From sequence record OQ938542.1: DNA of 64,000 nucleotides; one strand, 5' to 3'. The stretch comes from Escherichia phage vB_EcoP_PE007. Below the pieces are notes generated by a model that ran no database searches, was not told the origin of the DNA, and was given only the letters and a program-made list of their open reading frames with translations. Shown piece by piece: positions 19,138 through 48,520 of the stretch. The position numbers and the translations under genes were made by a program. The stretch's first letter is position 1, and each line of letters opens with the position of its first letter.

Positions 19138-20117
19138 TGAAGATAACCAACAACCATGATGTATCACTGGCCCTGGCTGTATGGCTATTACATGATGAGT
19201 ATGATTACGTAGACAATCCTAAGTATCTGTCTGTTACCACATTGCTTAAGCCCATTAAGCAAATCGTCATGAAGCATCGTGTAGATTTAAGTGACCAGTC
19301 AATTGATGTTATGGATTTCGTCTCTACATCAATGGGTACCGGTTTACATGATTCTATCGAGAAAGCCTGGAAGCTAGGTCATAAGACTGCATTGAAGAAG
19401 TTGGGTTATCCTCAACGAGTAATTGATGCAGTAGTCATTAACCCAACCAAAGCAGACTTTGATGCTAACCCTGACCTTATCCCAATCTACATTGAACAAC
19501 GTGGAACCAGGGTAGTTAAGGGTTGGACTATCGGTGGTAAGTTCGACATCGTAACAGAAGGTCTGTTGCAGGACTTTAAGTCTACCTCAACCTATTCCTG
19601 GGTTGCTGGTTCCCGTGATGATGAACACAAGATGCAAGGCAGCTTGTACCGTTGGATTCACAACGACATCATTACTGAGGATGTAATTCGCATTAACTAC
19701 ATCTTCACTGACTTCATGAAACACATGGCTAATAGCAATCCGAACTATCCTGCTAATCGTATTATGCATAAGGACATTCCGTTGCTATCTGTCGAGAAGA
19801 CTGAACGTTGGGTAGAAGAAAAGATTCACCTCATTGAGAAGTACTGGAATGCACCTGAAGAGGAAATTCCTGAATGTACTGACGAGGAGTTGTGGCGAAC
19901 AGAGCCACAGTTCAAGTACTTCTCTGATGCTTCTAAGGTAGATGTACCTGGAGCCAGAAGTACCAAAAACTTTGACGATATGGCATCTGCTCGTATCTTC
20001 ATGGCTGAAAAAGGTGGCAAAGGTGCTATCAAGGTCGTGGAGGGGCAGGTTAAGCGTTGTCTGTACTGCCCTGTCGCGTCCATTTGCAAACAAAGAGAGA
20101 GATATTTTCCATCATGA
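19138..20117 (+). CDS. PD-(D/E)xK Cas4/RecB-like nuclease
   Basis: GKFDIV ... QDFK nuclease-core pattern and C-terminal CLYCPVASIC (Cx2Cx5C); ATG 19138 abuts the upstream stop. Confidence 0.5.
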
Positions 20118-22267
20118 GTATTGACCTGACCGGAGTCACTCACCACCCTGCAATTGAAGAAATTGTAGATGTGCTGTGTAACAAGACACAAAACAACGAC
20201 AGAGGATTCTTCCGTGTCGAAGTAGCCTACTTCCTGGCTAAAATGGCATCCTGTATGGGTGCAACCATTGTCACTAAAGACCGTGGTGACTTACCAGTCA
20301 ACATTTACGCTATGGCATTAGCAACGTCTGGCTTCGGTAAAGGTCACTCGGTAAATATTATTGAAGACGGATTCATGACTGGCTTCCGTAAACGCTTTAT
20401 GGAAGACACCATGCCCGTCATTGCAAATGACCGTCTATGGAAGATTGCTAACGAACGTGCTGCTCGACAAGGTACAGACCAGAATGATGAGTTTGATAAA
20501 GTTGAAGCAGAATATAAACGTGCTGGAGCATATCCGTTTACGTTTGACTCTGGTACTCCACCAGCAGTTAAACAACTACGTCATAAACTGTTAATGGCTG
20601 GGTGTGGTTCAATCAACCTTCAGATTGATGAAATTGGTTCTAACCTGCTGGCTAACACAGATGTATTAACTCTGTTCCTGGAACTGTATGACCAGGGTAA
20701 GGTTAAGCAGAAGTTAACCAAGAATACTGCTGAAAGTGTTCGTGGTGAAGAACTGGATGGTAAGACTCCAGCTAACCTGTTGCTGTTTGGTACACCCAGT
20801 AAGCTACTGGATGGTGGTCAGACCGAAGATCAGTTCTATGACTTCCTTGATACAGGGTATGCACGTCGTTGTCTGTTTGCCATTGGGCATTTAGACAAAC
20901 GAGCACATGCAACGCTAACTCCAGAGGAAATCTACCGTAACCTGATTAAGCAGGATAACGTACAGTCCCTTGGTAAGTGGGCTAATCACTTCCATAGTCT
21001 GGCTGACCCAAACCTGTTTGGTTTTAAGATGGTTGTGGAAGATGCTGTGGGTATTGCTCTGATTACTTACAAGATTGATTGCGAGAAACAAGCAGAAGCT
21101 ATGGCTGACCACGAAGAAATTCGTAAAGCTGAAATTTCCCACCGTTACTTCAAAGCTCTTAAGCTGGCTGGAGCACTGGCGTTTGTTGACCAGAGTTCAT
21201 TCATTGAAATGTCTCACCTTAAACAAGCAATCCTGCTCGTAGAGGAATCTGGGGCAGCATTCCAGGGTATTCTCAATCGTGAGAAAGCTTATGTGAAGCT
21301 GGCTAAGTATATCGCTTCTGTAGGTAAAGAAGTGACTCATGCTGACTTACTGGAGTCATTGCCGTTCTATAAGAGTGGCAATGCAGCTCGTAATGAGATG
21401 ATGACTCTTGCTACAGCATGGGGCTACAAACAGCACATCATCATTAAGAAAACCTTCAATGAAGGTATTGAGTTCTTCCGTGGGGAAACTCTGAAAGAGA
21501 CTGACATCAATGAGATGATAGTGGCATATAGTGATAGCTTTGCTTATGACTACATTGGTGAACGTGTACCGTTCGACCAGTTGCATGTATTAACTCAAGC
21601 TCCCGGTATGCACTGGGTAAACCATCACATGAAGAATGGACATCGTTCCGAAGAGAACGTTATTCCAGGATTTAACATGATTGTTATTGACTGTGATGGT
21701 GGAGTACCACTGCATACGTGCCATGAACTGATGAAGGAATATAAGTTCATGACCTATACCACTAAGCGTCATTCTGATGAAGAGAACCGCTTCCGGCTGA
21801 TTATTCCAATGAACTATGAGTTACACCTCGATACTGAGGAGTACAAAGAGTTCATGAATAACGTTATGTCTTGGCTACCGTTCGAAACGGATGAATCTGC
21901 TAACCAACGAGCCAAGAAGTGGATGTCCTGCGAGACTGGTTCCTATCATTACAATCTTGAAGCAAATCTGTTGGACGTGCGTGACTTTATTCCTCGTACT
22001 AGTAAGAACGAGCAGTTCCAGAACCAGATGAAGGAAGTACAGTCGTTGGATAATCTGGAGCGTTGGTTCGCTAGTCGTATTGCTACCGGTAATCGTAATA
22101 ATCAAATGATTAAGTACGCACTGGCATTGGTTGACAGTGGTTGGGATTTTGCCCAAGTACAGCAAGCCGTCCACTCATTCAATAAGAAACTGGCTAATCC
22201 ATTACCAGATGATGAATTGAATGCAACCGTAATGGTCACCGTGGCTAAACGCTTCGCTGGCAAATAA
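20114..22267 (+). CDS. putative DNA primase (prim-pol-like C-terminal region)
   Basis: ATG 20114 (ATGA overlap); IVIDCDGG Asp motif; N-terminal P-loop-like GFGKGHS and QIDEIG; sits in the replication module. Confidence 0.45.
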   Translation: MSIDLTGVTHHPAIEEIVDVLCNKTQNNDRGFFRVEVAYFLAKMASCMGATIVTKDRGDLPVNIYAMALATSGFGKGHSVNIIEDGFMTGFRKRFMEDTMPVIANDRLWKIANERAARQGTDQNDEFDKVEAEYKRAGAYPFTFDSGTPPAVKQLRHKLLMAGCGSINLQIDEIGSNLLANTDVLTLFLELYDQGKVKQKLTKNTAESVRGEELDGKTPANLLLFGTPSKLLDGGQTEDQFYDFLDTGYARRCLFAIGHLDKRAHATLTPEEIYRNLIKQDNVQSLGKWANHFHSLADPNLFGFKMVVEDAVGIALITYKIDCEKQAEAMADHEEIRKAEISHRYFKALKLAGALAFVDQSSFIEMSHLKQAILLVEESGAAFQGILNREKAYVKLAKYIASVGKEVTHADLLESLPFYKSGNAARNEMMTLATAWGYKQHIIIKKTFNEGIEFFRGETLKETDINEMIVAYSDSFAYDYIGERVPFDQLHVLTQAPGMHWVNHHMKNGHRSEENVIPGFNMIVIDCDGGVPLHTCHELMKEYKFMTYTTKRHSDEENRFRLIIPMNYELHLDTEEYKEFMNNVMSWLPFETDESANQRAKKWMSCETGSYHYNLEANLLDVRDFIPRTSKNEQFQNQMKEVQSLDNLERWFASRIATGNRNNQMIKYALALVDSGWDFAQVQQAVHSFNKKLANPLPDDELNATVMVTVAKRFAGK

Positions 22268-22323
22268 GCAAACAGGAGTCTTTCTTTGGTTTGAAGGACT
22301 CCTAAATTAAATGAGGAAAAATA

Positions 22324-23076
22324 ATGTCCGAAGTAATTCCCAATGATATGAACACTCAGCTAATCCTGATTGCAGGATTCTCAGCGAGTGGTAAATCAGC
22401 ATCACTGCGTAACATCAGGAACCAGGAACGCTGGCTCTATCTGAATACTGAAGCAGGTAAACGTCTGCCTTTCCGTAACAAGTTCAATACTTACAACATC
22501 GAAGACCCGTACCAAATCTGGGAAGCATTTGATGTTGCATCTCCGGGTGGAGAAATGGCAGACGATGTTGATGGTATCATCATTGACTCAGCAACCTTTA
22601 TGATGGATATGCTGGAATCTCAGTACGTATTGCCTTCTGCAAATACGCAAAAGGCATGGGGAGATTTTGCACAGTTCTTTAAGATACTGCTGCAACAGAA
22701 AGTCGTTAAGTTTGGTAAGCCAGTAATTATTACTGCTCATGCTAAAGACGAACTTGATGAAGCTGCTGGTGTAATGAAAACATTCATCCCAGTGAAAGGC
22801 TCTCTGAAGAATAACGGGCTTGAAGCCTACTTCTCTACAGTGGTTTACGCAGAACGTGTAGACATTAAAGAACTGGAGAAGTATGGAAACAAGATGCTTG
22901 AAATTACGGAGGAAGAACGTGATTTAGGCTATAAACATGTATTCCAGACCCGTCCAACCAAGAAGTCTGTTGGTAAACGACTTCGTTCTCCTATGGGTAT
23001 GTTCGATAAGTCCGAGACTTACATTGATAACGATGCCCAGAAACTCTTAGACCACCTGGCTGAATACTACGCTTAA
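22324..23076 (+). CDS. P-loop NTPase (RecA-like/Sak4-like ATPase candidate)
   Basis: Walker A GFSASGKS; gaggaaa RBS. Confidence 0.5.
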   Translation: MSEVIPNDMNTQLILIAGFSASGKSASLRNIRNQERWLYLNTEAGKRLPFRNKFNTYNIEDPYQIWEAFDVASPGGEMADDVDGIIIDSATFMMDMLESQYVLPSANTQKAWGDFAQFFKILLQQKVVKFGKPVIITAHAKDELDEAAGVMKTFIPVKGSLKNNGLEAYFSTVVYAERVDIKELEKYGNKMLEITEEERDLGYKHVFQTRPTKKSVGKRLRSPMGMFDKSETYIDNDAQKLLDHLAEYYA

Positions 23077-23115
23077 GCGTTTGTCTGGTTGTTAATCACT
23101 TATTAGGAAAATCAT

Positions 23116-23919
23116 ATGTCATTGTTCAGTAATCTGAAAGAAAAAACCAAAAACGTTGAAGCTGCTAAAGACTCTCTGGGTGGTGGTGGCTTCGGTGCAA
23201 AAGAAACCGATATCTACACTGGTACTGTAAAAGTAGCTTACGTAGGCAAAGCTGATTCTGGTGCAGACTGGATGCAGTTAATTATTGAAGACCTGAAAAA
23301 CTCTGATGGCGTGCCTGCTGGCGAGTTCCGTGCTCAGGTGTACTTCACTTCTGGTAATGCTAAAGGCAACAAGCCGACTTACGAGAAAAATGGTAAAGAG
23401 TACTTCCTGCCTGGCTACACTGTCATTAACGACATGATGCTGATGGCTACTGGTACTGAACTGCCTGAAGCAGACTTCGAAGAGAAGATTGTTAAAGTCT
23501 ACGACTACGACGCTAAAGCAGAAGTTAATAAATCTGTCATGGTTCCAGTTGACCTGGTAGGCCAGACTGTTACCTTCGCTCTGGAAAAAGTTCTGGAAAA
23601 CAAGCAGGTTAAAGGCGACAACGGTTATGTAGACTCTGACGAAACTCGTGAAGTAAACGAGATTCAGAAAGTGTTTCACCCAGAACTGCTGGTCACAGTC
23701 GTCGAGGCTCAGGAAGCAGAGAAGGCTGAAAAAGAACTAACCCCAGAACTGGCTGTATTCTATGCAGCATGGCTGGAAAAGAACAAAGGCAAAACTCGTG
23801 ACAAGACTAAGAGTTCTGCTGGTGGTAATGGTAAAGGTGGCTTGCCTCCTAAACCAGGTGCGGGTGCTGGCACGGGTACTGCTCCTGCTGGTGGTAAATC
23901 ACTGTTTGGTAAACGTTAA
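23116..23919 (+). CDS. SSB-like protein (N4 gp45-like by size and position)
   Basis: 267 aa, Gly-rich termini, position between replication genes and resolvase; no motif-level proof. Confidence 0.45.
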   Translation: MSLFSNLKEKTKNVEAAKDSLGGGGFGAKETDIYTGTVKVAYVGKADSGADWMQLIIEDLKNSDGVPAGEFRAQVYFTSGNAKGNKPTYEKNGKEYFLPGYTVINDMMLMATGTELPEADFEEKIVKVYDYDAKAEVNKSVMVPVDLVGQTVTFALEKVLENKQVKGDNGYVDSDETREVNEIQKVFHPELLVTVVEAQEAEKAEKELTPELAVFYAAWLEKNKGKTRDKTKSSAGGNGKGGLPPKPGAGAGTGTAPAGGKSLFGKR

Positions 23920-24473
23920 TGAAAATCCCAATTGTCGGTGCAGACATTAGTCTCCGCAATTGGGGTTTAGCTCGTGGGATGCTGGACATTGAGTCCGGCG
24001 TCTTCGAGCAGGTCGAACTTAAACTGGTTCAAACTGAAGTTGACCACAACAAACAAGTTCGAACCAACTCCAAAGATATACAAGCCGCTCACGATTTGTT
24101 TCTTGGTTGTGAGGAATGGTTACGGTCTGCTAAAGCAGTATTCGTAGAAGTACCAGTAGGCTCTCAGTCTGCTAACGGTATGAAATCCTATGGCGTATGC
24201 GTAGGATTAATAGGTGCATTTCGTGCATTGGGTTGTCCAATCTTTGAAGTATCCCCAATTGAAAACAAACTTGCACTGGTCGGTGATAAAACTGCATCTA
24301 AGGACACGATGATTCGTGCTGCTCATGCCATCTATCCTGAAGCCAACTGGCTCACAGATAAGAAGGGCAAACTTATGAATAAGAATGAGCACTTAGCTGA
24401 TGCAATCGGTGCAATCCATGCTGGTGTAAATCTCCCAGCTTTCCAAAACCTCCTTAATTTAATAAAGGCGTAA
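23919..24473 (+). CDS. RuvC-like Holliday junction resolvase
   Basis: N-terminal IVGADISLRNWGLA, central FVEVPVGS, C-terminal DAIGAIHAG resembling RuvC catalytic regions. Confidence 0.5.
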   Translation: MKIPIVGADISLRNWGLARGMLDIESGVFEQVELKLVQTEVDHNKQVRTNSKDIQAAHDLFLGCEEWLRSAKAVFVEVPVGSQSANGMKSYGVCVGLIGAFRALGCPIFEVSPIENKLALVGDKTASKDTMIRAAHAIYPEANWLTDKKGKLMNKNEHLADAIGAIHAGVNLPAFQNLLNLIKA

Positions 24474-24474
24474 C

Positions 24475-24915
24475 ATGCAAATCATTTTGAACCAGTCCGA
24501 AGTAGAAGCTGCTGTACAGGCTTATGTCGATGATCAAATCAATCTTGCTGGTGACATCAATATTGTCATCAATGCAGACGGTACAGCTTCCGTTGGTATC
24601 AACGAAGAGGTTCATGAAGATACTCCACCCGTGGGAGTAGAGAAGAAAACTCGTCGTTCTCGTAAGAACCCACAGGAAGCTAAACATCGTCCGGTAGAAC
24701 CAGAGCCGGAAGAAGTAGTTGAAGAGGTAAAGGTAGAAGAAACCCAGACCTCTACTGGTGGTCAGAACGAGAGTTCTACGCCGGAACCTGAAGAAGAAGC
24801 AGTAGCTGAACCAGAAGCACAAGAAGAAGTTGTGCAGGAAGAAGTTAAGGCTGAAGAACCAGCAGAGAAACCTGCTACTAAGCCTTCACTGTTCGCTGGC
24901 CTTAAACGTAGTTAA
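24475..24915 (+). CDS. highly acidic hypothetical protein
   Basis: C-terminal half rich in Glu (EPEPEEVVEEVKVEE ... PEPEEEAVAEPEAQEEVVQEE). Confidence 0.5.
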   Translation: MQIILNQSEVEAAVQAYVDDQINLAGDINIVINADGTASVGINEEVHEDTPPVGVEKKTRRSRKNPQEAKHRPVEPEPEEVVEEVKVEETQTSTGGQNESSTPEPEEEAVAEPEAQEEVVQEEVKAEEPAEKPATKPSLFAGLKRS

Positions 24916-25149
24916 TCTGGTAGGTGGCTCAGAAGCTGCTGCTATTTGTGGTAGTGTTCGTAATTCTGATGCTATTGCTTATCAGGATTCTGGACGTGTC
25001 GGCTCCATACATAGCATTTATCATCACTGTGCTTATACTTTGGAAACTCAGTGATAAAAACGGTGGTGACAAGCCGCCAGAGTAACAACAACAACCGAAC
25101 CAGTGTGCAGGAATACTCTCCCCTGTGCATTGGTTCAACTGAGGCTAAT

Positions 25150-25320
25150 ATGAACAAATTTACTATTCACTGGCTCAATGGGAAGGTTAGTTCTTTCATG
25201 GGTGGAGAACCCGTTGAAGGAAAGAAAGCATTTCACATTGAATCGGAAGGCTGCAAAATCTTAGTACCATATGCTTGGTATAAAGAGGGTGAAGTAGAAG
25301 CATTAAAAAAGAGTAGTTAA
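25150..25320 (+). CDS. small hypothetical protein
   Basis: ATG 25150 with gagg RBS; last ORF before the ORF-poor locus. Confidence 0.4.
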   Translation: MNKFTIHWLNGKVSSFMGGEPVEGKKAFHIESEGCKILVPYAWYKEGEVEALKKSS

Positions 25321-26267
25321 TATCGTGAAGGGTTCTGTTAGAATCCTTTGAGATAGGAACTCCTATCATAACCTTTCTTATCTTAATCTTTGCCGTATGG
25401 CACTGACGCTAGGGTTGATGCCCATCCGTCAGGTAGACTATTTTAAGAATGGGTTATCACAGAAAATGTAAAGCAACATTCGGGTTAATCAATGGCCTCT
25501 CCCTATAGGGGCCATTTCTGAATCTTAGGCTATATCCCAAAGGTTAGTATCTTTAGGATAAGGCTTCAGATCCCTTATCAACTAACGCTCATGTTGAGCA
25601 CAACATTAACCAATAATGTCGGATAGTTCGTTATACTATTCATCCAGCATTGAGATGTTAGGTCTTACATGTAAACTAAATCATAGGGTAAAGAGGGACT
25701 CGTCATCCCTCCCCTATTATGACATCCTATCAATGAGTACATTAAGCTAACGTGCGGAGGTTTACACTGTAGCCGGTGTAGGTGGAGAAGACGGCAGGGT
25801 AGCTACCTGTGCTTAGTGTACTCTTTGATAGTTTTCGTAAGCGATTATGCGGTTTTTTAGAAATGAACCAATAACATAAATGCAAACGATGATGTTGTTC
25901 TGATGGCGGCGTAATAGCCTGTAAGTCAGCAAGGTCTTCCGACTCCTTGTAAGCAAATTCGGCGCAGTGGCCCGCTGTGATTAATAATGGGCACACAACA
26001 GGTAAGAGCATTTAGGCTACTGAGAAATCATCCGAGGCAATCAGACCTATCTTCTGTTAAGTGCTCTTTCCGTTGTGGTGAATGTGCAGGCTGATGCGCA
26101 GTGGGACGTGGCTGACTCACGAGGATGGCTCAAGCGAATAAGCAAGCTCGACGCCGCCGAATAAGCGCCTTATGCCGGAGATCAGTACCGGCCACCACAA
26201 CAAGTCCAGACGATATCTGAGTGACTATAAAAACAGATGGAGCCAGGTGGAATCCCTGGCAATTAAT

Positions 26268-26334
26268 TCCGGTGTAGGTACTAGCGTTGTGCACAAACGT
26301 GAGTGTTCTGGTTCGAGTCCAGACGCCGGAACCA
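26268..26334 (+). ncRNA. tRNA-like element (degenerate or D-arm-less tRNA with encoded CCA)
   Basis: 7-bp acceptor tccggtg/cgccgga (one GU), T-arm tctgg-TTCGAGT-ccaga, anticodon-like arm gcgtt-gtgcaca-aacgt, discriminator A plus CCA; no D-arm, so only about 64-67 nt. Confidence 0.3.
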
Positions 26335-26405
26335 ATTCAAAGTAGCATTGCACTAATCCATCCCGGAGTTCAAAGGCCAAACATGGAGCAGTGCTACTTT
26401 GAATT
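26334..26405. repeat. long inverted repeat (14 bp perfect, about 18 bp with one mismatch)
   Basis: aattcaaagtagca at 26334-26347 pairs with tgctactttgaatt at 26392-26405; left arm overlaps the CCA end of the tRNA-like element. Confidence 0.6.
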
Positions 26406-26779
26406 AGAAAGATTATGGGGGTAAGTCGTAACCATACGACGGCGTAAGTACCAGATGAGACTTCTGGACGCCCCTACCAGATTTGGGGTGTAACAGTTAA
26501 ATCCAGTTGCCGGAAGTGCTATTCTAGATACGCTGCCAATGTGTGAACGGTAAGGCTGTACAGGACTCGGACTCCCGCCTCAAACCAAAGTCGCCAGGTA
26601 CTTATGGCAAACGGGTAGTAACGAACTAGTCATTCGTCAAACGCCCACCCTATTATGAGTCAGCAAGAACGCCTTCACTTAAACTTAAACAATATAAGCT
26701 TAACGCAATAATTATGTAGGGGTATGTAAGGATTGCGAAGAAGGAGCCAGTTAAAGTCTGGCATGACTCACTCATTTAT

Positions 26780-26853
26780 GCCCACTTAGCTTAGACGGGG
26801 AAAGCAACCGACTAATAATCGGAAGGTCACTGGTTCAAATCCAGTAGTGGGTA
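26780..26853 (+). tRNA. tRNA (hand-folded anticodon AAU; identity uncertain)
   Basis: Acceptor gcccact/agtgggt (7 bp, one GU), D-arm gctt/aagc, anticodon arm accga-ctaataa-tcgga, 5-nt variable loop, T-arm actgg-TTCAAAT-ccagt, discriminator A; 74 nt. Confidence 0.65.
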
Positions 26854-27080
26854 CTTATTAATAGAGAACATAGTCCTGATTGCATTGCACTCTAAAGACA
26901 ATGCCGGTGAGACAGTCCGGCACTCTAATTATTGAAAACATACCTAACGGTGTGAGTATGAGCAGACTATAATGCTCAATTACAGTTAACTATTATCGGA
27001 CTATCAATCCTGTTTGCTGGTACAAGCACCGGTGGTAATAGTTAACTGGCCTAGCCTCGTTAGCTGCGTTAAAGCTACTA

Positions 27081-27105
27081 AGTCCCTCTTCGGAGGGACT
27101 TTTTT
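27081..27105 (+). terminator. rho-independent terminator closing the tRNA/structured-RNA locus
   Basis: agtccctc-ttcg-gagggact followed by T5. Confidence 0.75.
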
Positions 27106-27169
27106 ATTTGAGTATTGATGAACGCAATCATGCTTAAGTACAAATTCAAACCACTCTATGAGGCTAATA

Positions 27170-27550
27170 ATGGCAACAGTAAGTAAAGAAGCAATCGAAG
27201 CTAAGATTAAGAGCATTTACTTTTTCAATGGTGCAGATGCAGTGAAGTCTGCATTCGTTGACCCTTCTGCACTACCGGCAGATGATTTGGCTAACCTGGG
27301 TCTGACAACCCATTGTGTAATCATTCTGGAAAATGGATTTAAAGTTGAAGGTGTATCTGCTTGCGTAGACCCAACTATCTATGATGAGCAGTTAGGTCGC
27401 CAGTATGCATATGAAAATGCATTCAATAAGATTTGGGAATTAGAGGGCTACCTACTACGTCAGGCACTGCATGAGAAGGAAGAGACTGCTAAAGCTTTGG
27501 CTTCCTTTGCAGAAAACAATACCTGTGATGGTGGTGGTTGTACAATTTGA
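27170..27550 (+). CDS. hypothetical protein
   Basis: ATG 27170 with gagg RBS; first gene after terminator 27081-27105. Confidence 0.5.
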   Translation: MATVSKEAIEAKIKSIYFFNGADAVKSAFVDPSALPADDLANLGLTTHCVIILENGFKVEGVSACVDPTIYDEQLGRQYAYENAFNKIWELEGYLLRQALHEKEETAKALASFAENNTCDGGGCTI

Positions 27551-27630
27551 TTCAAAGGTGTATGGTAGTTTTTACCGAAAGGTACTGAACTACCCGACAT
27601 GTGGTAAGGCTCATGAAGCCAAAACAAAAC

Positions 27631-27655
27631 AAGCCCTCCTAGTGAGGGCTTTCTC
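27631..27655 (+). terminator. hairpin terminator/attenuator
   Basis: agccctc-ctagt-gagggct followed by ttctcattt. Confidence 0.45.
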
Positions 27656-27668
27656 ATTTGAGGTAGTT

Positions 27669-28184
27669 ATGTCAGAAGAAATTAAAGTCCATTTCACCAA
27701 CTACATTGGAACCAAGTGTGTAAATGGTTTCCGAATGAACAAAGAAACATACTGCAAACTTCGAGGCTGGGATGTACCAGCAGATGAAGATCCACTAGAA
27801 GAAGGTTACTTAGTCGAGTACCCAGACTCTAAGTCCAACCAACCTCAATTTCGTGGTTATCCTCAGTTCCGTGGCTATATTAGCTGGTCACCTAAAGCTG
27901 CATTTGAAGCTGCATACCATGACGTAGAAAAAGGTTGTACCTTTGGTCATGCAGTAGAGCTTCTCAAATCAGGCTTCAAACTAGCCCGTAAAGGCTGGAA
28001 TGGCAAAGAGATGTATATTTCCTATGTTGACCCAAAAGAGTGGAATAGTAGTGAACTGGAGCGTCCATGGGATGAAGACCTTAAGCCACGCCCGTGGATT
28101 GGTATCAAAACCGTCGATAATGAGTATATGCCTTGGGTTCCATCCCAATCGGATGTATTAGCAGAAGACTGGGTAATTCTATAG
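27669..28184 (+). CDS. protein with possible DUF2829/Tad2-like C-terminal domain
   Basis: ATG 27669 with gagg RBS; C-terminal FGHAVELLKSGFKLARKGWNGKEMYISYV ... PWVPSQSDVLAEDWVIL; assignment is from recalled family motif, not a search. Confidence 0.45.
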   Translation: MSEEIKVHFTNYIGTKCVNGFRMNKETYCKLRGWDVPADEDPLEEGYLVEYPDSKSNQPQFRGYPQFRGYISWSPKAAFEAAYHDVEKGCTFGHAVELLKSGFKLARKGWNGKEMYISYVDPKEWNSSELERPWDEDLKPRPWIGIKTVDNEYMPWVPSQSDVLAEDWVIL

Positions 28185-28486: not shown

Positions 28487-28492
28487 AATAGA

Positions 28493-28517
28493 AGCCCCTC
28501 ATTAGAGGGGCTTTTTC
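28493..28517. terminator. bidirectional terminator between convergent genes
   Basis: agcccctc-atta-gaggggct with T-rich flanks on both strands; lies between the + strand gene ending 28486 and the vRNAP stop at 28520. Confidence 0.65.
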
Positions 28518-28519
28518 AT

Positions 28520-31500
28520 TTAGTTAGTAAGATTGAGCCACGGGTTCAGGGTATGAGCACGTAAGCCTTGACCGAAACCGAAGGAGTAACCAAGATTGCC
28601 CTGTGCAGCAATACTAAAGATGTTGTCCTGAATAGGCAGACCAACGTTACCAAACATGGTAGGGGTTGGAGCCAACATAGCTATAGCAGCATGCACCGGG
28701 TTATTACGAATCATGGACACTGCAACTTTTGCAGAACGAATCTTAAAGTTATAGAACCACATTAAACCAACACTTTCCATATACCCACGGAAGCGACCCG
28801 GTAGACGGTCATAGTTAATAAACTCTTCCGTTACACGTCCTAGTGCTTCTTCACGGGTCTTACCTTTACGCTGAGTCAGTTCATCATAAATGATTGCTTT
28901 AGCGATAAAGTCAGAGTACTCAACCGTCTTCTGGATACCCTGGAACAGAGCAGTATCCTTAGTGATAAGTGCATAACGACCTGCGTTACGTACAGACTTA
29001 GGCAGCTTATCAGCCAGCTTATCCATGTATTCGTGAAGTTTGCCTTCAGTAATAAGGATATCATCACGACCAATACCAGCATCTGCAATTGAGGAGAACT
29101 CACCAGCTTCCAGCAGAGGCCAGATACTCAAACGTTTATGGCTATCAGAGATGGACTGAATCTCAGCCTTAAGTTTACGAATCTGGTTCGGGTTAGTAGC
29201 TGCACGTAATTCTGCTTCTGCATCTACCTGACGCAGACGAGATTTCAGGTACTGGTTAATCTCAGCAGTCTTCTGTGGAATGCTCTTAGCAATGTTCTTA
29301 ACCGGTACACCACGAGCAATCATCTGATAAAGGTTAGCCAGGAAGTTAACAGCAGGTACGACTACTGACTTAACCACAATCAGAGTCTTAGCTTCTTTAA
29401 CTAAGTTCTGAACCAGGTTCTCACCACCCATTACATACTTATAGGCACGGTTGCCAAAGACACCCAGCATAGCTTTCTTGAAGGTATCCAGTGTTTCTGG
29501 TGACCAACGGGAATTACCAGACCAGGCATCACCTACAGAAGCTGCACGATAACCCAGAGCATCGTTGAGCATGTCACGACGTACCCATAATTCACCCGGA
29601 CCAAACAAACTTTCTGCTTTCTGACGGGTTTCACTGTTCATCAGCTTAAGTGCATCGGCAGTTACTGGGTCCAGTTTAGAACCAAGAAGGTTAACGTACT
29701 GGGACTTATTAGAAGCAGACATCTTAATGTCGTTCTCATACATGCTATGCAGGTTCTCAATCAGCATATCATTGAAACGCTGAGCCTTAGCTTCTTCCAC
29801 CTGACGACCACGCCATACACCGATTGCACGAGCAAGATGGTTCTCACCTTCAATGTGCTTCAGCATATTAGGGTCAATGGATTGCTCATAAGCAACCACA
29901 TTACCATTGGCATCATATACAGGCAGCAGTGGTTCATTACCACGTTCACCACGAGCCAGTGCTTTAGTGATACGGTCTACGGAAGGCTTGTCAGTGATAC
30001 GACCAGCTACCATGGTTCCCATAGTAAAGCCCGTACCGAGATCTACACCACCAGCAGTATTACGAACGTTCTGTAAGATACCTTGCGAGAAAGGAGCCTG
30101 TGCCTGTACTGGTGCAAAGTAGTAGCTACGTGCTGGTCCACGATTAGCAGAGCTACCCTGATAAGTACCAAGACGTACATAGGATTTCTCAATCAAATCA
30201 GCAAACTGACTATCTTCAGCAACAATCAGGTTAACACCCTGTTTGTTCTCAGTTGGGATGTATCCTTTGTACTGATTCAGGGTTGCACGAGTATCAGACT
30301 TAGCTTTAGCCATTTCATCTTTACGCTGACCAACCAGGTAAGAAGTAGCAAAGTCCATGCCTTCAATTTCTGTCTGAGCCAGTGAAGATAACATCTCACG
30401 GTCAGTCTTATTCATTGCTTCCAGTGCATACAAAGTAATCAGTTTATCCAACTGAGCTACATCTACAACAGAACGTGTAGTCTTACGTTCACCCAGTAAA
30501 CGAGAAATTGCAGTAGCATTACGTAGCAGGTTGTTACCAACCGTACCATTAATCATGTATTGAGCCAGTTGCTTAGATTTACGATTAATCAGAGGCCAGT
30601 TACGTCCTGCTTGTTTCTGTAAATCTGCTTCCAGTTTATTAACCTCACGGTCAACAATCTTCTGGTCAGTCAGCAGGTCACGGATTTCAGCCAGAGACAT
30701 AGTGTCGCGAAGAACAGCTAAGTCAGTTTTACCCATACCAGTATGCATTGCTTTCCACTCATCGTTAGTCAGCTTACGGCTGAACTTAGATGCGATAGTA
30801 GTAGGCAAATGCTCACGGAACTGCTGACGGTCAGCCTGTACCTGTGCACGTACTGCTTTAATCAAATCATATACAGAAGCATTGCTCTTAGTACGACCAG
30901 TTAAGTCATTAACCAGGTCATGGAAAGGTTGCCATACTTTACCCTGGTTCATTGCAGCCATAACACCTTCAGCTACGATTGCACCATTCTTCTCTGTAGC
31001 AATAGCAGCTATCAATTGTGCAGCATGAGCAGCACCTTTAACCAGTGGGTTCTTGGTATTAGCTGCAACTTCACGAGCACCTTCCAAAGCACGGGTAGAC
31101 AGTACATCAATAGAGTCCACCAGATACTGGTTAGCACGGTCAATAGCATTACCGGTAGGAGTAGCAACGGAATCATAGAAGGACTCTGCATTAAGACTGG
31201 TCTGCATAATTGTCTGAGCCAGTGCATCCATACCTTCCTGTACGTTAGTGGCTTTAGTATCACCTGCTACACGAGCATTCAGGCTAGCCATTGCAGCAGT
31301 ACCGATGTTAGTCAGCATTGCATCAACGGTATTGCCTGATTTCTTATCTGCTTTCATAACAGGAATATCAGCCAGTACCTTACGTACCTCTTCGCTTACC
31401 ATTGCCAGACCAACAAAGGTAGGCAGTAAGGAAGAACGACCTTGTGCATCAAATTCAATGTTGTTAGCACCCATGATGGTATCGAACTTCTGCTGTGCAT

Positions 31501-34500
31501 AGTAACGGTCAGCAGGGTTAGTACTATCCGGGTCAGCCATGAATGATTCGACGGTCAGATTCTTAGTAACATGCGTGTAGTATTCCTGTGCACGAGCCAT
31601 AGCAGCAGGGTTAATAGCAGCCTCGGTAGCCAGTGCAGCAACAATGTTAGTAAAGAGACGCTGTTCCTGCATATTCATGGTGAAGCCATGTGCCTGAACA
31701 TCACGAGTTACTTTAGTTGCATTTACTACTGCATCAGAGAACTTACCTTTACGAATTACTTGCTGTACTGGTTCTGAACCAATGTAGTTAGTAATCAGCT
31801 TATCGAAGGTTTTCCCTAGCTCTTCCAGACGAGTATTGTCACCGTATGCTTTGTTATGGAACAAGGTAGTATCTTTAGCTACAGCAGTAGTAGGGGCCTG
31901 CCCACGCATTACTACAGCAGAGTTAAACAGTAAGCCAGAGAACATATCATCTGCATTAGCAGGAGCTTTCTTACGTCCGAATACCAGACGTTTGATTGCT
32001 TCATATACAGCCTGAACCATAGTTTTAAGTGCAGTGGTTTTCTTCTGCTTACTTATAAGTTCACGGTTGGTTAAACCCCAAGCCATGTACTCATTCAGTG
32101 CAGCAGCTTTAGCCATCGCTGGTTCAATAAAGCCATTAGACAAGTGACCATTAATGGTATTCAGTGCATTAGCATATGCTTCACGTACTGCCGGAGATTC
32201 ATCCTTAACATCCAGAGCACGGAACTGATTCATCAGGTCTTCAATATTCTGTACTGCTTCATTAGGAGTACCTTCATAGTGAGCCAGTACAGATTCAAAA
32301 GTAGAAGCATGTACTAATTCATGAACCAGAGTCTCTAAGGAAGGAGTAACTAAGTAGATGGTTTTATCTTCAAAGTTAGTCCAGCCATATGCATTACCAG
32401 CCTCAGCAGCTTCAATATCTTCTGGTGCTGGGCGAGTAATATTCTTCTCAATAGCGTAGGCATCCAGTTGAGAAGGCGTACCGTAAACAACCTTATAGTC
32501 TTTAGCAGCAAGAGATTTCTGTATTTCTTTCAGTACTGCTTGTTGTTCAGGGGACATCTCTTTAGCCAGTTTAGTAATGGCAGCATTAGACAGCAGACGT
32601 ACACCAGACTTCAGTACACGACCGACCTGTTCCATTGCTGGCACTTCTTTCACTGGTTCTGCTTTAGCAGCACGTACTGCATCACGACGCTTGTTTAATT
32701 CAGCATCAAACAGTTCGTTCAGCTTAGCTACTTGCTGGTCTACAGTCAGACCTTCCAGAGAGATTTTACCGTTGTTCACATAAGGAGCACCAACAGCAGC
32801 CATCTGGTCAACAGTGACTTGTACCTGGTCCATTACCTTGTGGCGAATATCTACACCCAGAGCAATATTACGCAGATTACGTTCAATCTGTTCAGCACCA
32901 ACACGTAACAGGTCATCAGTAGCACCCTCACGTTGGTCGTATTCCAGTGCAGATTTAGCGATAGCTTGTTTGGTTTCATCAGACAGTTTGCTGAAGTCTA
33001 CGTTCTTCATGAACTTAGCAAAGGAGTCATAAACATTCTTGATAGGGTTACCCTGCCAGGAAGTATATACAGCCTCATTAGCTTTACGGCTTGCATCAGT
33101 AATGTCATTAATACCAATGTTCATACCATCAAAGATTTTCAGGGTATTCTTCGGAGCACCTTTCATAGTAGAAAGGGTCTGCATCATCATGCCATCACCT
33201 GTACCGATGGTCATAAATGGAATACCTGCTACACCTGCCTGTGAAGGAGCATAGATGATCATTGGCACACGCATACGGTCATCTAAGTTGGTAGCCAATA
33301 CTTGGTTAGCAACATCAGTATTCTCACTACCAGCAATGTAGAAAGTCTGTGAACCAGTCTCAATCATTGGAGCCAGTGGAGACAATGAAGCCTGGATTTC
33401 ATTCAGTTCTTTCTGTGTTAAGAAATCACCTTTCTTCCATGTTGGGTCTTTTTCTTTTTCTGCCAGCTTAGCCTGTACAGCTTGTTGGAACATATCCTGC
33501 AATACCAGAGATTGAATCTGAGTAGCCTTCTGTAAGTTCTCAGTAGAATACATCAGACCCTCACCAACAGTATTTCGGATACCAGTACGCATTGGTTCAA
33601 CGAACAGATGAAGCATGTTCTCTTGTAAGTTCTTCAGAGCATTACCGGATACAGTAAACTTCTGAGGGTCTAACTTACCAGTCAGAGCACCATCTACCTG
33701 CTGAATAGACAACTCACCTTTACGCATAACCGGAACATTACCAGTTAGTGCTTCCATAGAAGTAAGGAAAGTATCCAGCATAGCCTGAGCATCAGCCTCA
33801 GACGCAGCCTCCTTACCAAACATAGCCATAGCTGGGGAAATGCTAGGGTCAGCAGCACGGGCTTGTAGAACGTCACTGAAGCGTTCGTAGATGGTATCAG
33901 TAATTGCACTAACCATCTTGCCAGCAATACCACGAGCACCAGAACCATAGATGGTAATGGTCAGTGGGTTTTTAGCGATACCACGTTTCAGGTCCAGAGT
34001 ACCATCTTCATTAAGATTGAAGTCTTTAATGAACAGGTCCATTAACTTCTGAAGATGCTTCATCTGGTTCGTAACAGGAACGTTGTTACGGTAAGTATTG
34101 CGTAATTCATTCAGTGCCTGTTGCAGACTATTAGTAGATGCTTCATACAGGTCAACACTGTCATCATGCGAATGATGCTCGTTCATAGTCTTGCCAGCTT
34201 TACCGAAGAACAAGCCACCCTTAGCAGTATTCTTAATCCAGTCTGAAGTGAACTTACCACCAGTCATTAATACCATTGCGTTGATTGGTCCGTTGGTTAC
34301 ACCATCGGCTTCAACGTACAGTGGGGTATTAAAGTTAGCACGGTCATCACTGTTAAGGTAACGGGCATATTCCATAAGAGCCATGAGAGCTACGAATGAT
34401 TTATCATTCCCCAAGGAAGTCTTCAGAATATCCACTGCATTAGCAGGTAAGTGACCAGACTTATCAAACTCAACCATCATATCAACAGCAGGTTTCAGTT

Positions 34501-37500
34501 TACCTTCCAGAGCTTTAGTCAGCTCATCTGACATAACTTCACGGGACATTTTATGAACTTTAATGCCTAATGCCTGAGCCAGTCCAAGCTGGAAGTCAGA
34601 GAACGTTTGACTGTTTTCATTACTTAAGTCGATGGTAGAGAAGGTTGGAAGGATTGCTTCACGAACCAGCTTACTGGATTGTGGGTTGTTCTTACCAAGC
34701 ATCTGCATACGACCTACACGGGTCATGTTGTAGCCGTAGTGAATAGGTGTATCCAGTCCATTCTCCTGTTCCTTAATTTGATTGATTACACCAAACAAAG
34801 AATCATATGCCATGGACACGGACAGGTTCTTACCTTCCAGTGATTTAGCAGTATTCACATTAAGCAACTCTGGGGTAAGAGCACCAGCACCCATTAATTC
34901 CAGAATGTTGTCACGACCCAATGCTTCATAGAAGTTAACCATAGGCATATGTACACGAAACTCAGTAGCTTGTTCTGCTTTGAGAGCAGCTTTCTGTTCC
35001 GGGGTATTATTAACAGCAGGGTTACGTAACTGAGTTTGAGCCACGGAAGGAATGTCATCACCCAGATACAATTTCTCTACTGGTTCTAAAAGGACAGTTT
35101 CCTCAATAGCAGTAGGGAATTTATTAATGGCATCGTTATCATCCAGCTTCTCAATGGTATACAGACCAACAGTCTTATTAGATTCTGGGTCAATCTCAGA
35201 CACATCTAACATGGACTCTTTAACTTCACCCATCTCAATAAGGGAAGACAGAATCTCTGTAGCCATTGCCATTGGGATACCCTTGGTATACCCCAAAGGT
35301 GCATTAGGATTACGATTCAAACCCCAATAGGATTCAATCTTTTGAGCTAGTGAGTTAGTAGCTTCAACCAGGGTCTGAGCATTCTCGAAGTCAGCCAGAA
35401 TACCTTCTGGTAGCAGAGATGCTTCCACACCAGTAATAGCAGCTACGTCTTTCATGTCTTTAACAGCAGCATTCTGTGTAGCAGTCAATCGCCATTGCAG
35501 ACCAGCAAGTACAGCAGTTTCTAATAGCTGGTCATTGAACTTAAAGGTGTCACCATCTTTCTCTACGATGTTAAGTAACTTACCACCTACCCAACGGTTA
35601 GCCTCAGTACCTTCCGCAAAACGTTTACCAACGTTCTTGTTAGCAAGGAACTTAGCCAGACGGTCAGACAGAGTAGTCTTCAGAGTTTCACCAAACTCAA
35701 ATAAGTCCTGGTAACGCTTAATCACATCACTTGTGAGAGCGTTATTTTCTTTTTGAGTAAATGCTTCAAAGCGAGCAGCAGAAGACAGTGCTTTCTTAAC
35801 ATCAGTCAAAGGAGACTCAGAGCCAATGGTACGAGACTTAGGTTCTTCTGGAAGACTAAATGCTTTAAGGAACTGGTTCGGTGTCTTGTCATTGTTGTAG
35901 ACAGGGAACACTGTTTCCATTTGAGATAAAGGTTTACCACCAACGGTATAGTCTGCTTTCAACTGAGCCAGTGATACTTCTTCCTTCTCTACATTATTGG
36001 TATTACGCCCAGACGTATCTACACCAATCTGAATCAGTGCATTGTTTGCTTCTACGAATGATTGAACAGTATTGAATTGTTCAGGAGTCAGCTTCTGATT
36101 ATCAAACAGTTGTAATGATACAAATGGTTGCTCACTTCCTTTGTAGAAAGTGGAGCGTACAGCACCAGTATCCAGAGACATATCACGGTAACCATCATGA
36201 CCAAATACATCAGACAGACTGATATGGTCACCATTGGAACCAACAACAGTACCATCATCAAAGAGCCAAGGACTCTCCTTACGGTCACCATACTTATTAA
36301 GAGTATCCTGTGAAATAGTATTCTCTTTCACATAAGAATCTCTTTCAGATTCAGTAGGCTGTTCAACGGTATCCTGTTTTTCAGATTGGTTCTCAGGTTC
36401 TTTTACAGTCTGTGGTTTAGACTCTTTAATAGTAGGTTCTGTTTTAACAGCTTCACTAACAGAGGGTTTAGTCTGTACAGTAGGGGTAACTGGTTCCTGT
36501 TTTGTAACAGGAGTTTCATCAACCTGATTCACTGGTTCATTGGTCTGTTGGGATTGAGCAGCATCAAGATTGCCCTGACGGAACTCTTTAACTACCTGGG
36601 CGGCAGGCTTGTCCAAACGTGAATCCAATGGGGTAACTTTCACATGAGAAACATTAAGCTCCGGGTAAGCCGTAGCAAGTGCGTTAGCAATATCAGCTAC
36701 GGTCTTGGCTTCCAGTCCTACTTGCTGGGCAAACTTAACAGACTTGGTATCATACGGATTGACACCGAGGCCAGTACGACTACGTACCCATTCACGCGAG
36801 GGAGTAAGAGCCTGATAATGGACAGACTTATTCTTATCCGCATTCCCAGAAATCAAATGCTCATTCAACGCTCCGACCTTATTCTGCATGTGCTGGGCGA
36901 ACTTCATAAAATCGCTCAGATAAGCGGAGGCCAAATCGAAGTTACCAGAGTTATACGCAGAACGAATGCGTTTCGCATGTTGCAACGCAGAGTACTGTCC
37001 TTCATTAGAACGAGACTCATCGGTTTTAATCTGTTTACTAACAATATCTTGAGGACGTAAGCCTAGTTCTTCTGCTTTAGCGTCGAACTCTCGTGCACCC
37101 TGTAATAAGGCAGCAGCAGATTGCAGGGCAGCACGTTGACGATTCCCCAGTGTAATCTTACCTTCACTTGCATGTTTCAGAACCATGTTCACTGAATCTG
37201 CATCCAGCACTTCTGGAGATACATCAGCAGCCATAGCAATGTTGTTTGCTTGGGCTTGGTTAGCTTCTTCAGTAGCTTTCAGTTTACCTGCTTCAGCCTG
37301 TTCCTGAATCATGGAATGGATGGCACGGAATGCACGAAGTACCTTCGGTGTATTCTGAACGTTAGCCATCAGGCCGGAGAATTGGTCTACGATTGCAGCA
37401 GCAGGGGAACCTTGTTCCAGATTAGCCAAAGCACCCGGGTCACGGTTAATGAAGCTATCCATAGACATGATATTGTCATACATCTGGATTGCAGCTTCCA

Positions 37501-39274: not shown

Positions 39275-39344
39275 AGCATGTTTCCTGTTCAAACTTATAT
39301 CGTATATAGGTAACTTACTCTACAGTAAGCCAGTTAAAGAAAAA

Positions 39345-47299: not shown

Positions 47300-48520
47300 T
47301 TAAAGACTACCCGGTACTGGGAGTTTAGCGAAATCTTCATCACTCATAGCGAGTGGGTTTACAATAGGTGTTGCTTTACGTGTAGCAGCCCGATTAAGGG
47401 AAGCTGCTTTAGCTTGCTCATTGTTAGCCAGAGTCTGCTTAGGTTGTGCTACACGCACTACCGGCTGAACTGCTGGTTTAACTGCTTGTACTGGTTCAGG
47501 CTTAGCTACTTGGTTAAATGCTCCTTGTTGTGCAAGAAGGTTACCAACGTAGTTATAAGCCTGAATAAACGGAGTACCTACCGGAATCTGACCTAACACC
47601 TGAAGACGATTCACTTCATTAGCAATGGTGTCATAAATACCATTCTCACGCTGTTCGTGAATGGTGTGGAGTAAGCCACGATTCTGATAAAGAGCATCTT
47701 TACTGGCAGCATCCCATGTCGAGCTAATAACACCTAATGTAGCTTGTCCTTCTTGAGTAGACTTTAAGTCGTCAATTTCGGTTGCAAAATCTGCTTCGGT
47801 GTCTGTAACACGGTGTTTGCCACCCTGGTAGTTAATTTCCTCTTCTGGATTAAAGTCCAGAGGATCTGTACCAGAGTCTTTCAACAACTTTTTAATGGCT
47901 TCAGGATTCTTCTTATCCAGGTCAATCAGGAAAGAAAGTTTTTCCTCATCCATTAAACCGTTGTTCTGTAGCATCAGCATTACCTTACGGTACGGCTGAA
48001 GTTCTTGCATCTTACGAGTATAGTTAGCACCCATCTGCATCAGGCTAATGGCCTCCTCCGGAGAACGGGGAGTAATCATTTTGCCGTTAGCTTTAAAAGG
48101 AGCCATCAACTTCTCATAACCTTCCTTATAGTTGAAGTCAGCAGGCAGACCTTCAGACTGTTTGCCTTCTTCTTTCTGTTCCTGGCCTGGTTCAGCAGTA
48201 GAAGGTTCAGCTTCAGTAATCGGCTTACCGTTACTATCAACTTCTGTGTCAACAACTTTATCATCAACTTTATCAGAAGTTAAAGAATTTGCTGAATCAT
48301 CTTCATCTGCGTCAGTTTCGGGGGAGGTTTCTTCGGTTGGTAGTTCTTCAACAGCAGGGGTGTCAACTTCTTCATCAGGAGTCTGTACGCCGTTGGTTTC
48401 TGGGTTGTTCTGAGTGGAAGTATCTTCCTCAGCAATAATAGCTGGGGCTTCCATATTCAGAATCTCATCATCCGACATTGCGAGAATGTCGGAAGCTGTG
48501 GTTGCAGCTTCCGTAGTCAT
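47300..48520 (-). CDS. acidic scaffolding-like protein
   Basis: Acidic low-complexity N-terminus, placed between portal and capsid genes. Confidence 0.4.
   Translation of the reverse strand: MTTEAATTASDILAMSDDEILNMEAPAIIAEEDTSTQNNPETNGVQTPDEEVDTPAVEELPTEETSPETDADEDDSANSLTSDKVDDKVVDTEVDSNGKPITEAEPSTAEPGQEQKEEGKQSEGLPADFNYKEGYEKLMAPFKANGKMITPRSPEEAISLMQMGANYTRKMQELQPYRKVMLMLQNNGLMDEEKLSFLIDLDKKNPEAIKKLLKDSGTDPLDFNPEEEINYQGGKHRVTDTEADFATEIDDLKSTQEGQATLGVISSTWDAASKDALYQNRGLLHTIHEQRENGIYDTIANEVNRLQVLGQIPVGTPFIQAYNYVGNLLAQQGAFNQVAKPEPVQAVKPAVQPVVRVAQPKQTLANNEQAKAASLNRAATRKATPIVNPLAMSDEDFAKLPVPGSL

Follow-up and report, generated by a model that had tools for sequence, protein, structure and literature searches.

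What does a phage gain from a small, strongly acidic protein encoded directly behind its single-stranded DNA-binding protein (SSB) and its Holliday-junction resolvase? This question is raised by the gene at positions 24475-24915 of a 64,000-nucleotide stretch of Escherichia phage vB_EcoP_PE007 (sequence record OQ938542.1), the whole of which is referred to here as the window. The original prediction for this gene described an acidic, Glu/Pro-rich, low-complexity protein at the end of the middle operon, and proposed that it could be a DNA mimic, a disordered acidic activator tail, or a histone-like counter-ion protein. We found that the acidic region leads to a C-terminal tip carrying a short motif in common with the SSB of the same genome, and that, in several other N4-like phages, a homologous module is fused in frame to the C-terminus of a resolvase. 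From these sequence comparisons, we suggest that the product, hereafter gp47, acts as a disordered tether: it would equip the resolvase with an SSB-type docking tip and share a docking site with the SSB tails. We assign about half of our confidence to this account. As far as our searches show, the motif shared with the SSB, the within-genome co-variation of the two proteins, and the recurrent fusion to RusA are new.

The gene is an intact ATG-to-TAA open reading frame (ORF) of 146 codons on the forward strand, and lies, as originally described, after the SSB gene (gp45) and the resolvase gene (gp46). A single nucleotide separates the gp46 stop codon (24471-24473) from the gp47 start codon, which suggests translational coupling, and spacings of 0-3 nt or overlaps between these two genes are also found in N4, in Ea9-2, and at two further loci (L022 and L024). 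Public data hold 682 homologous proteins, from near-identical to distant, and purifying selection is visible on parts of gp47 among 106 close relatives; with about 680 homologs and selection acting on parts of the protein, we consider the gene to be real. An antisense ORF of 122 amino acids (aa) at 24454-24822 was set aside as a by-product of GAA-rich codons. Residues 1-146 of the product align with positions 1-151 of the 151-position profile PHROG 7641 ("hypothetical protein"), and, on this homology, the gene product is the ortholog of N4 gp47, a protein already catalogued under that same uninformative name. The two proteins are homologous over their full length and have in common the position after gp46, the N-terminal head, the basic patch, and the C-terminal tip, whereas PHROG 7641 (and also PHROG 18842) supplies a name without a function and hence no mechanism. 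An exhaustive HMMER search of 1.84 billion representative proteins placed the family in 23 clusters at 50% identity, and a tblastn search with the head region matched 176 phage records, all N4-like and distributed across the Schitoviridae, with hosts among the alpha-, beta-, and gamma-proteobacteria.

None of the resources searched connects this family to a known function. Pfam, NCBIfam, and PADLOC contain no family for gp47 and returned low-complexity noise only (Menin, PRP1_N, and similar), with no match to the PADLOC anti-defence and defence models at E<=0.1. With Foldseek, no PDB structure matched the AlphaFold model at E<=0.001 (the best E-value being 1.4), and the same model searched against BFVD retrieved family members and RusA fusions only. 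A relationship to some characterised family of unrelated function would have spoken against the original prediction, but nothing significant emerged from the Pfam, NCBIfam, PADLOC, PDB sequence, or Foldseek comparisons. Likewise, our literature searches yielded no functional statement on N4 gp47; the "gp47" described for Migulavirinae is a tail-fibre chaperone that follows another numbering scheme, and is irrelevant here. The protein is also missing from the accessible portion of a published table of family signature genes, plausibly because its linker defeats clustering. Separately, the annotated gp47 of the N4 RefSeq record NC_008720 (~32039-32112; L002:8040-8113) ends in ...EEEKKYRKKRLKNQYKPNLLCLQV, and a +1 shift in an A-rich run changes this end to ...EEEAKEPVQAKPSLFAGLKR, the family consensus, each followed by a stop codon. 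An intact N4-type gp47 protein (P0138) is present in public data, and in NC_008720 the conserved gp47 tip is probably masked by an erroneous frameshift.

We next consider where, along gp47, sequence is conserved. The AlphaFold model contains a folded N-terminal head made of a first beta-strand, a helix (residues 7-21), and two strands (28-32 and 38-42) paired as a hairpin; in the window, this head includes no Lys or Arg and has a net charge of -8. The remainder, i.e., the basic patch, the acidic spacer, and the tip (Table 1), is modelled as low-confidence coil, with predicted local distance difference test (pLDDT) values mostly below 70 and block means of 44-71. In an alignment of the 23 clusters, invariance is limited to M1, G36, and F140, with L5, E9, and S138 coming close, from which we conclude that the conserved parts are the head of about 45 residues and the last ~10 residues. 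The same contrast was observed at short evolutionary range: among 106 near-identical relatives of equal length, 13% of sites were polymorphic in the head, 17% in aa 46-75, and 70% in aa 76-135, as opposed to 9% (1 of 11 sites) in the tip. The original prediction, which focused on the acidic segment, therefore described it correctly but singled out the least constrained part of the protein. Between genera, the linker varies in length and sequence to the point of being unalignable, while a charge gradient is kept: summed over 32 family members, the charges of its three successive thirds amount to +51, -138, and -259, the first third being net positive in most members and the distal two-thirds negative in almost all. 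Judging from these alignments, the acidic Glu/Pro stretch is a spacer conserved in composition only, and not a sequence-specific element. The tip peptide (KPSLFAGLKRS) has the opposite profile, with an invariant Phe (F140) and a single polymorphic site, and it follows a disordered linker in which most sites vary, as is typical of short linear motifs at the end of flexible chains.

The tip motif recurs in the SSB. In the window, the SSB begins with MSLFSNLKEK and ends with AGGKSLFGKR, while gp47 ends with KPSLFAGLKRS; in N4, the SSB begins with MSNLFGNL and ends with AAKSLFGKK. A six-frame scan showed that, among the real genes of the window, gp45 and gp47 are the only two with a terminal S[LI]F. 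The pairing extends well beyond this phage: we compared 19 genomes that cover at least 10 genera or subfamilies (Enquatrovirinae, Humphriesvirinae, Rothmandenesvirinae, Erskinevirinae, Demetervirinae, Zicotriavirus, Huelvavirus, Oliverunavirus, Pokkenvirus, and metagenomic lineages), and in all 19 both proteins carry [SGAK][LIM]F within 1-14 residues of the C-terminus. LIT1 (Migulavirinae), looked at separately, provides a 20th pair with the motif in both proteins. The residues flanking the core often match between the SSB and gp47 of one phage, e.g., APRKSLF and APRQSLF in Ea9-2, ARPSLFG and RRPSLFG in phiAxp-3, ESSTSLFG and ESTGSIFD at locus L018, PKKKLFG and KPKKSIFA at locus L020, or ASLFS and GSLFS, each directly before the stop codon, in LIT1. 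Accordingly, the five residues preceding the core were more alike within than between genomes (permutation p=0.002, 19 genomes), a result that is indicative rather than decisive because these genomes are related.

A broader set of SSBs further delineates the motif. In a 120-sequence alignment of diverse SSBs, obtained from a profile search and also used for the AlphaFold model of the SSB, L263 and F264 were invariant and S262 and G265 at least 90% conserved, with S-L-F present in 116 of the 120 tips as well as in most gp47 tips. The C-terminal consensus of this alignment is AAPRKSLFGKK and the N-terminal one MSLFGNLK. The latter is nearly identical to the gp47 tip, SLF[AG][GN]LK[KR] (e.g., PSLFGNLRRS or PSLFANLKR), so that, of the two SSB copies, the N-terminal one is closer to the gp47 tip; no mention of this N-terminal SLF copy was found in the literature searched. 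The SSB model has a confident core (aa 30-230), for which the nearest Foldseek matches were SSBs with an oligonucleotide/oligosaccharide-binding (OB) fold and PrgE, at marginal E-values of ~1e-3, and two ends of lower confidence (pLDDT 52-64 for residues 1-28 and <50 for aa 234-267). Since both ends are predicted to be flexible, the motif copies sit on flexible tails, as expected of docking peptides. A locus search with the SSB alignment returned close relatives only.

One potential receptor for such tips would be the host beta sliding clamp, if the SLF tips of SSB and gp47 were clamp-binding motifs of the QL[SD]LF type that recruit both proteins to it. S-L-F does correspond to positions 3-5 of the clamp pentapeptide and is terminal in both proteins, and clamp-binding motifs are typically found at protein termini after disordered linkers. 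The hallmark Gln position argues against this, as it is occupied by R (86), T (16), or K (11) among the 120 SSBs, and by Q in 0 of 19 gp47 tips. In addition, N4 replicates with its own polymerase, and N4 gp8 inhibits the host clamp loader. Hence, we regard clamp binding as very unlikely.

The second line of evidence links gp47 to the resolvase. The order SSB-resolvase-gp47 was observed in every locus inspected, although the resolvase itself differs: it is RuvC-like in the window, N4, Ea9-2, phiAxp-3, inbricus, OLIVR1, Pokken, and LIT1, and RusA-like, separate from gp47, in Pylas and FSL SP-076. In four phages, verified by translation, RusA and gp47 form one uninterrupted ORF, namely in Rhizobium phage RHEph16 (260 aa), Pseudomonas phage ZC03 (280 aa), Sinorhizobium phage ort11 (271 aa), and Vibrio phage VCO139 (265 aa), and each of these fusions includes the head, the basic patch, the acidic linker, and an S[LI]F tip. 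A single tblastn alignment across RusA and the head was obtained for 71 records, which sets an upper bound on the number of fusions, and Foldseek against viral models matched a 222-aa roseophage "RusA" (a BFVD entry that we count as a further, putative fusion). Consistent with these fusions, gp47 matches positions 145-263 of the 311 positions of PHROG 14238 (RusA-like resolvase), i.e., the non-catalytic extension, and gp47 itself has no nuclease domain by Pfam and no catalytic resolvase domain by profile search. On the strength of this homology, gp47 is the free-standing form of a module that elsewhere extends a RusA-type resolvase at its C-terminus. In the N4-like phages of Rhizobium, Sinorhizobium, and roseobacters, and in ZC03 and VCO139, the extension is homologous to gp47 and occupies the equivalent genomic position, whereas in the window gp47 is a separate gene and its upstream resolvase is RuvC-like, not RusA. 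Because two unrelated resolvase types precede or are fused to the same module, the module would serve junction resolution rather than one enzyme fold.

Two further candidates were encountered among the fusions. The non-N4 Vibrio phage 1.079.O, one of the 71 records, was rejected, as a stop codon follows its RusA and its SSB is of the ordinary DDDIPF type. In roseophage DSS3phi2, the RusA ORF orf58 (L038:2456-2992) takes in just a few residues of the gp47 head (...MRILLDQDDIHKR...) before its stop codon, probably because a frameshift in the record has broken up a fusion of RusA and gp47. The original prediction had missed the link to the resolvase that in-frame fusions in other schitoviruses provide.

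Taken together, these patterns suggest that gp47 could act as a flexible tether or adaptor, the tip of which would plug into the docking site used by the SSB tails. gp46 has no tail of its own, and docked gp47 would position or regulate it at sites where the SSB and its partners work, i.e., at replication and recombination intermediates and possibly at host RNA polymerase. The acidic spacer would then work through its length and charge, not its sequence, and hold the basic tip and the basic patch away from bulk DNA. Before docking, the spacer may in addition cover DNA-binding surfaces, by analogy with the acidic tails of T7 gp2.5, T4 gp32, and HMGB proteins.

Several observations weigh against this tether model. 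The 19 genomes are kin, and the co-variation of the two tips could partly reflect common ancestry or gene conversion. For the residues that follow the Phe, no co-variation was seen (p=0.77 in the same permutation test), and they differ systematically, with GKK in the SSB C-terminal tip and AGLKR in gp47, so the two tips may not be interchangeable. AlphaFold docked neither SSB tail onto the SSB core, and a variant of the model in which this core is the receptor gains nothing from the prediction. On the resolvase side, a head that specifically binds both enzymes is unlikely because RuvC-like and RusA-like resolvases are structurally unrelated, and the head may instead dimerise or act independently; in the window it lacks any basic residue, and sequence alone names no partner for it. 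Finally, the fusion of tightly coupled neighbours can arise by simple stop-codon loss.

What the tip might bind can be narrowed by what is known of SSB tails. For N4, a review from the Rothman-Denes laboratory (PMC4496689) reports that the SSB (N4SSB) needs its C-terminal residues to activate host RNA polymerase, that it can activate late transcription without binding ssDNA (single-stranded DNA), and that it interacts with the C-terminus of the RNA polymerase beta' subunit. In phage HK620, both the binding of Sak4 to SSB-coated ssDNA and the stimulation of annealing require the last six residues of the SSB (PMC5928155). By analogy, gp44, which is Sak4-like and encoded directly upstream of the SSB, is a candidate receptor. 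Overall, we lean slightly towards a phage replication or recombination protein as the receptor of the tip, be it the Sak4-like gp44, the DNA polymerase, the primase, or the SSB core; the beta' C-terminus of host RNA polymerase is a less probable candidate that still deserves attention, and any other receptor appears quite unlikely.

The chief rival of the tether model follows from the second of these receptors. In this scenario, gp47 would be a regulator of late transcription whose tip mimics the N4SSB tail at the beta' C-terminus. It could compete with N4SSB as an anti-activator and so time the middle-to-late switch, or else serve as a co-activator, and its adjacency to the resolvase would be incidental. 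The role of the N4SSB C-terminal residues and their partner, the [RK]xSLF core with an invariant Phe in gp47, and the production of gp47 from the middle (replication) block together with the SSB all fit this scenario, and an SLF core that is invariant in phages of alpha-, beta-, and gamma-proteobacteria is what a highly conserved host target would lead one to expect. However, the RusA fusions in at least four genera and the constant place after the resolvase argue for DNA processing, the residues after the Phe are unlike the SSB C-terminal tip and more like the SSB N-terminus, and the literature names N4SSB as the activator and mentions no requirement for gp47 (PMC4496689). We thus consider a regulator of this kind unlikely, if considerably easier to defend than the other alternatives discussed here. 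Among the three original proposals, the disordered activator tail nevertheless came nearest, for a different reason than the one given: the resemblance lies in a tip, KPSLFAGLKRS, that copies the N4SSB tip, not in the acidity.

The likeness between gp47 and the N4SSB activation tail is confined to the end of the chain. What the two have in common is a disordered tail with a terminal [RK]-x-S-L-F-[GA] core, in which the Phe is invariant and the flanks co-vary. Unlike N4SSB, gp47 includes no OB-fold or ssDNA-binding core, its linker is acidic where that of N4SSB is Gly/Pro-rich and basic, and the residues following the Phe are AGLKR, as at the SSB N-terminus, instead of the GKK of the SSB C-terminal tip. 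More broadly, gp47 follows the logic of the bacterial SSB (DDDIPF) and of the T7 gp2.5 and gp4 tails, in which a disordered linker leads to a short hydrophobic or aromatic peptide for partner docking, but gp47 has a basic tip with further residues after the Phe, carries its acidity in the linker, and is unrelated to these tails in sequence. T7 gp2.5 and gp4 also provide an example of two replication proteins that have the same kind of acidic, Phe-ending tail and one partner in common. Recruitment through an SSB-tail-type peptide is hence a known principle, which gp47 would extend without constituting a new kind of system.

We then returned to the acidic region itself, for which a DNA mimic or acidic decoy had been proposed. 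The composition is as the original prediction described it: aa 76-135 contain 21 D/E, 7 P, and 3 K/R, including the string VEPEPEEVVEEVKVEE, and the low AlphaFold confidence of this segment agrees with the predicted disorder. With 23.3% D+E and an isoelectric point (pI) of 4.35, gp47 has the highest D+E fraction of the 46 likely gene products of the window, and its net charge is about -20. No DNA tandem repeats underlie the compositional bias. Its most acidic 60-aa stretch (36.7% D/E) is tied, as the most acidic in the window, with one in the product of 47300-48520 (-), a protein of 406 aa encoded in the late (structural) block, with the same pI of 4.35, up to 36.7% D/E per 60 residues, and no Pfam match; this is probably the first acidic protein implied by the original prediction, which had called gp47 the second.

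A decoy of this kind could act on a host restriction enzyme, a nucleoid protein, RNA polymerase, or the phage SSB or resolvase. It would draw on the net charge of -18 over 60 residues, on the low pI, and on the negative charge of the distal linker in almost all of the 32 members, and there is precedent in the disordered acidic tails of T7 gp2.5, T4 gp32, and E. coli SSB, which compete with ssDNA for the clefts of their own proteins. Characterised mimics, however, are folded proteins with patterned surfaces, whereas this region is disordered and hypervariable, and the parts under selection are the head, basic patch, and tip rather than the acidic residues. Ocr and ArdA, for instance, are likewise very acidic small phage proteins, but they are folded and display ordered arrays of carboxylates, and gp47 matches them in neither sequence nor structure. 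The linkers of LIT1, phiAxp-3, and inbricus are Ala/Pro/Val-rich and just mildly acidic, and the searches described above provided neither a PADLOC anti-defence match nor a structural match. The mimic proposal therefore finds little footing, and we now view it as quite unlikely.

The basic patch and the head raise two further alternatives. The motif EAKH[RV]PV is conserved in the patch within the Gamaleyavirus-like subfamily, and its N4 counterpart is KERKHRPV. A basic block follows the head in most of the 32 members, and two distant members include an AT-hook-like RRGRP, in ARRGRPRNK of RHEph16 (L026:3102-3884) and in PRRGRPP of P0132; since a basic region followed by an acidic tail is the layout of HMGA and HMGB proteins, gp47 might be a small architectural, histone- or HMGA-like protein whose patch binds DNA and whose acidic tail modulates this binding. 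In the window, the corresponding KKTRRSRKNP lacks the R-G-R-P core, the patch accounts for ~18 residues in a protein that is strongly negative overall, Pfam provides no match to the HU, H-NS, or HMG families, and the invariant tip and the resolvase fusions would be left unexplained. An architectural role is for these reasons highly improbable, and nothing beyond this short patch speaks for the histone-like counter-ion protein of the original prediction.

For the head, the best sequence-profile matches in the PDB were all to YfiA/RaiA, aligned from residue 1 at E=0.4-0.65, and a 33-sequence alignment of the head, compared with E. coli YfiA by hhalign, gave 60% probability (P=8.6e-5) over beta1-alpha1-beta2-beta3. 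This could mean that the head is a truncated domain of the YfiA/HPF type (ribosome hibernation factor) and that gp47 acts on ribosomes. These matches are not significant at database scale, 0 of 22 members matched Pfam Ribosomal_S30AE at E<=10, Foldseek gave no match, the beta4 and alpha2 elements of the fold would be missing, and the genomic context is DNA metabolism. A ribosomal role is accordingly barely credible, and we did not retain the YfiA/RaiA resemblance as evidence; it stays a weak, consistent, and unexplained likeness.

Finally, we examined the genomic setting of gp47 (Table 1). The window is a G7C/ECBP1-like N4-type phage (Schitoviridae, Enquatrovirinae, Gamaleyavirus), and its 22300-26000 region is 93-98% identical to Escherichia phages ECBP1, Bp4, PD38, St11Ph5, and PGN829.1, all Gamaleyavirus. 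A conserved gp44-45-46-47 cassette opens with gp44, which precedes the SSB gene in every fetched locus, and gp47 lies immediately 3' of the resolvase and upstream of the virion RNA polymerase, a position checked in the window, St11Ph5, N4, and every metagenomic and isolate locus fetched. In one metagenomic N4-like contig (L017:1590-2132), an HNH_3 homing-endonuclease gene sits between SSB and resolvase, breaking the otherwise constant cassette. The placement of gp47 at the end of the middle operon holds approximately: no strong terminator directly follows the gene, the first ones being found at 27080-27101 and 28490-28515, after small ORFs and one tRNA.

Table 1 Features of the gp47 locus and its surroundings in the window
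Feature	Positions	Strand	Details
gp43, primase	20057-22267		First in local gene order
gp44, Sak4-like AAA_24 ATPase	22324-23076	+	Pfam AAA_24 5e-11; PHROG 124 1e-49
gp45, N4SSB-type SSB	23116-23919	+	PHROG 743 E=3e-89; 60% identity to N4 SSB
SSB N-terminal motif copy SLFSNLKE (aa 2-9)	23119-23142	+	F4 and L7 >=90% conserved in 120 SSBs
SSB C-terminal tip GGKSLFGKR	23890-23916	+	On Gly/Pro-rich disordered tail; conservation in 120 SSBs
gp46, RuvC-like Holliday-junction resolvase	23919-24473	+	PHROG 159 E=3.8e-42; RuvC-like annotation in relatives
Shine-Dalgarno-like AAAGG	24464-24468	+	6 nt 5' of gp47 ATG; read from sequence
gp47 ortholog, whole coding sequence (146 aa and TAA)	24475-24915	+	PHROG 7641 E=1.2e-68; annotated "gp47" in St11Ph5
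gp47 folded N-terminal head (aa 1-45)	24475-24609	+	AlphaFold pLDDT 85-93
gp47 basic patch KKTRRSRKNPQEAKHRPV (aa 56-73)	24640-24693	+	Net positive block
gp47 acidic Glu/Pro/Val-rich disordered spacer (aa 76-135)	24700-24879	+	pLDDT 44-63; net charge -18
gp47 C-terminal tip KPSLFAGLKRS (aa 136-146)	24880-24912	+	Short linear motif in common with SSB
Virion RNA polymerase	28520-39292	-	3590-codon ORF; N4-like hallmark

The region downstream of gp47 includes several features of separate interest. A 53-codon ORF with a GTG start (24924-25085, +) lies 9 nt past gp47 and encodes a hydrophobic, probably membrane-spanning peptide (MAQKLLLFVVVFVILMLLLIRILDVSAPYIAFIITVLILW...), which has no Pfam match and is also encoded, unannotated, 3' of N4 gp47. 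Small ORFs occupy the equivalent site in Pylas, phiAxp-3, and other phages, one of them annotated with a transmembrane domain. The ~1.7 kb that follow the gp47 block (25400-27100) are poor in ORFs and contain one predicted tRNA-Ile (anticodon AAT; 26780-26854, +), and, because relatives annotate other tRNAs here (tRNA-Ala in St11Ph5 and seven tRNAs in Ea9-2), we interpret this region as a variable tRNA island. Beyond it, the ORF at 27158-27550 (+) matches Phage_gp49_66 (E=4e-25) and overlaps, on its upstream side, the ORF at 27471-28184 (+), which includes a Tad2-like (Thoeris anti-defence 2) domain at aa 157-236 (E=5e-24); the two correspond to N4 gp48/gp49.

Overall, the eye-catching low-complexity region of gp47 would be a mere spacer, with the information carried by the ~10 terminal residues. 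N4 is the classic model of a phage that redirects host RNA polymerase by means of its SSB, and the action of the N4SSB tail has lacked a structural explanation. The presence of the motif in a second, resolvase-linked protein of the schitoviruses examined allows for a more precise definition, with an invariant S-L-F and a basic upstream flank, and suggests that the motif is a transferable docking module and not something peculiar to the SSB. One far-reaching and, in our view, unlikely extension is that [RK]xSLF constitutes a general docking code of N4-like phages for the beta' C-terminus of host RNA polymerase, through which gp47 and RusA-gp47 would bring the resolvase there or displace N4SSB. 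If true, the resolution of branched replicating DNA would be coupled to the late-transcription switch, a nuclease would owe its recruitment to a transcription-activator motif, and one site on RNA polymerase would be contested between a viral SSB and an accessory protein of a resolvase. In either case, these results provide a function-level hypothesis for a conserved "hypothetical protein" and a handle on the N4SSB activation tail.

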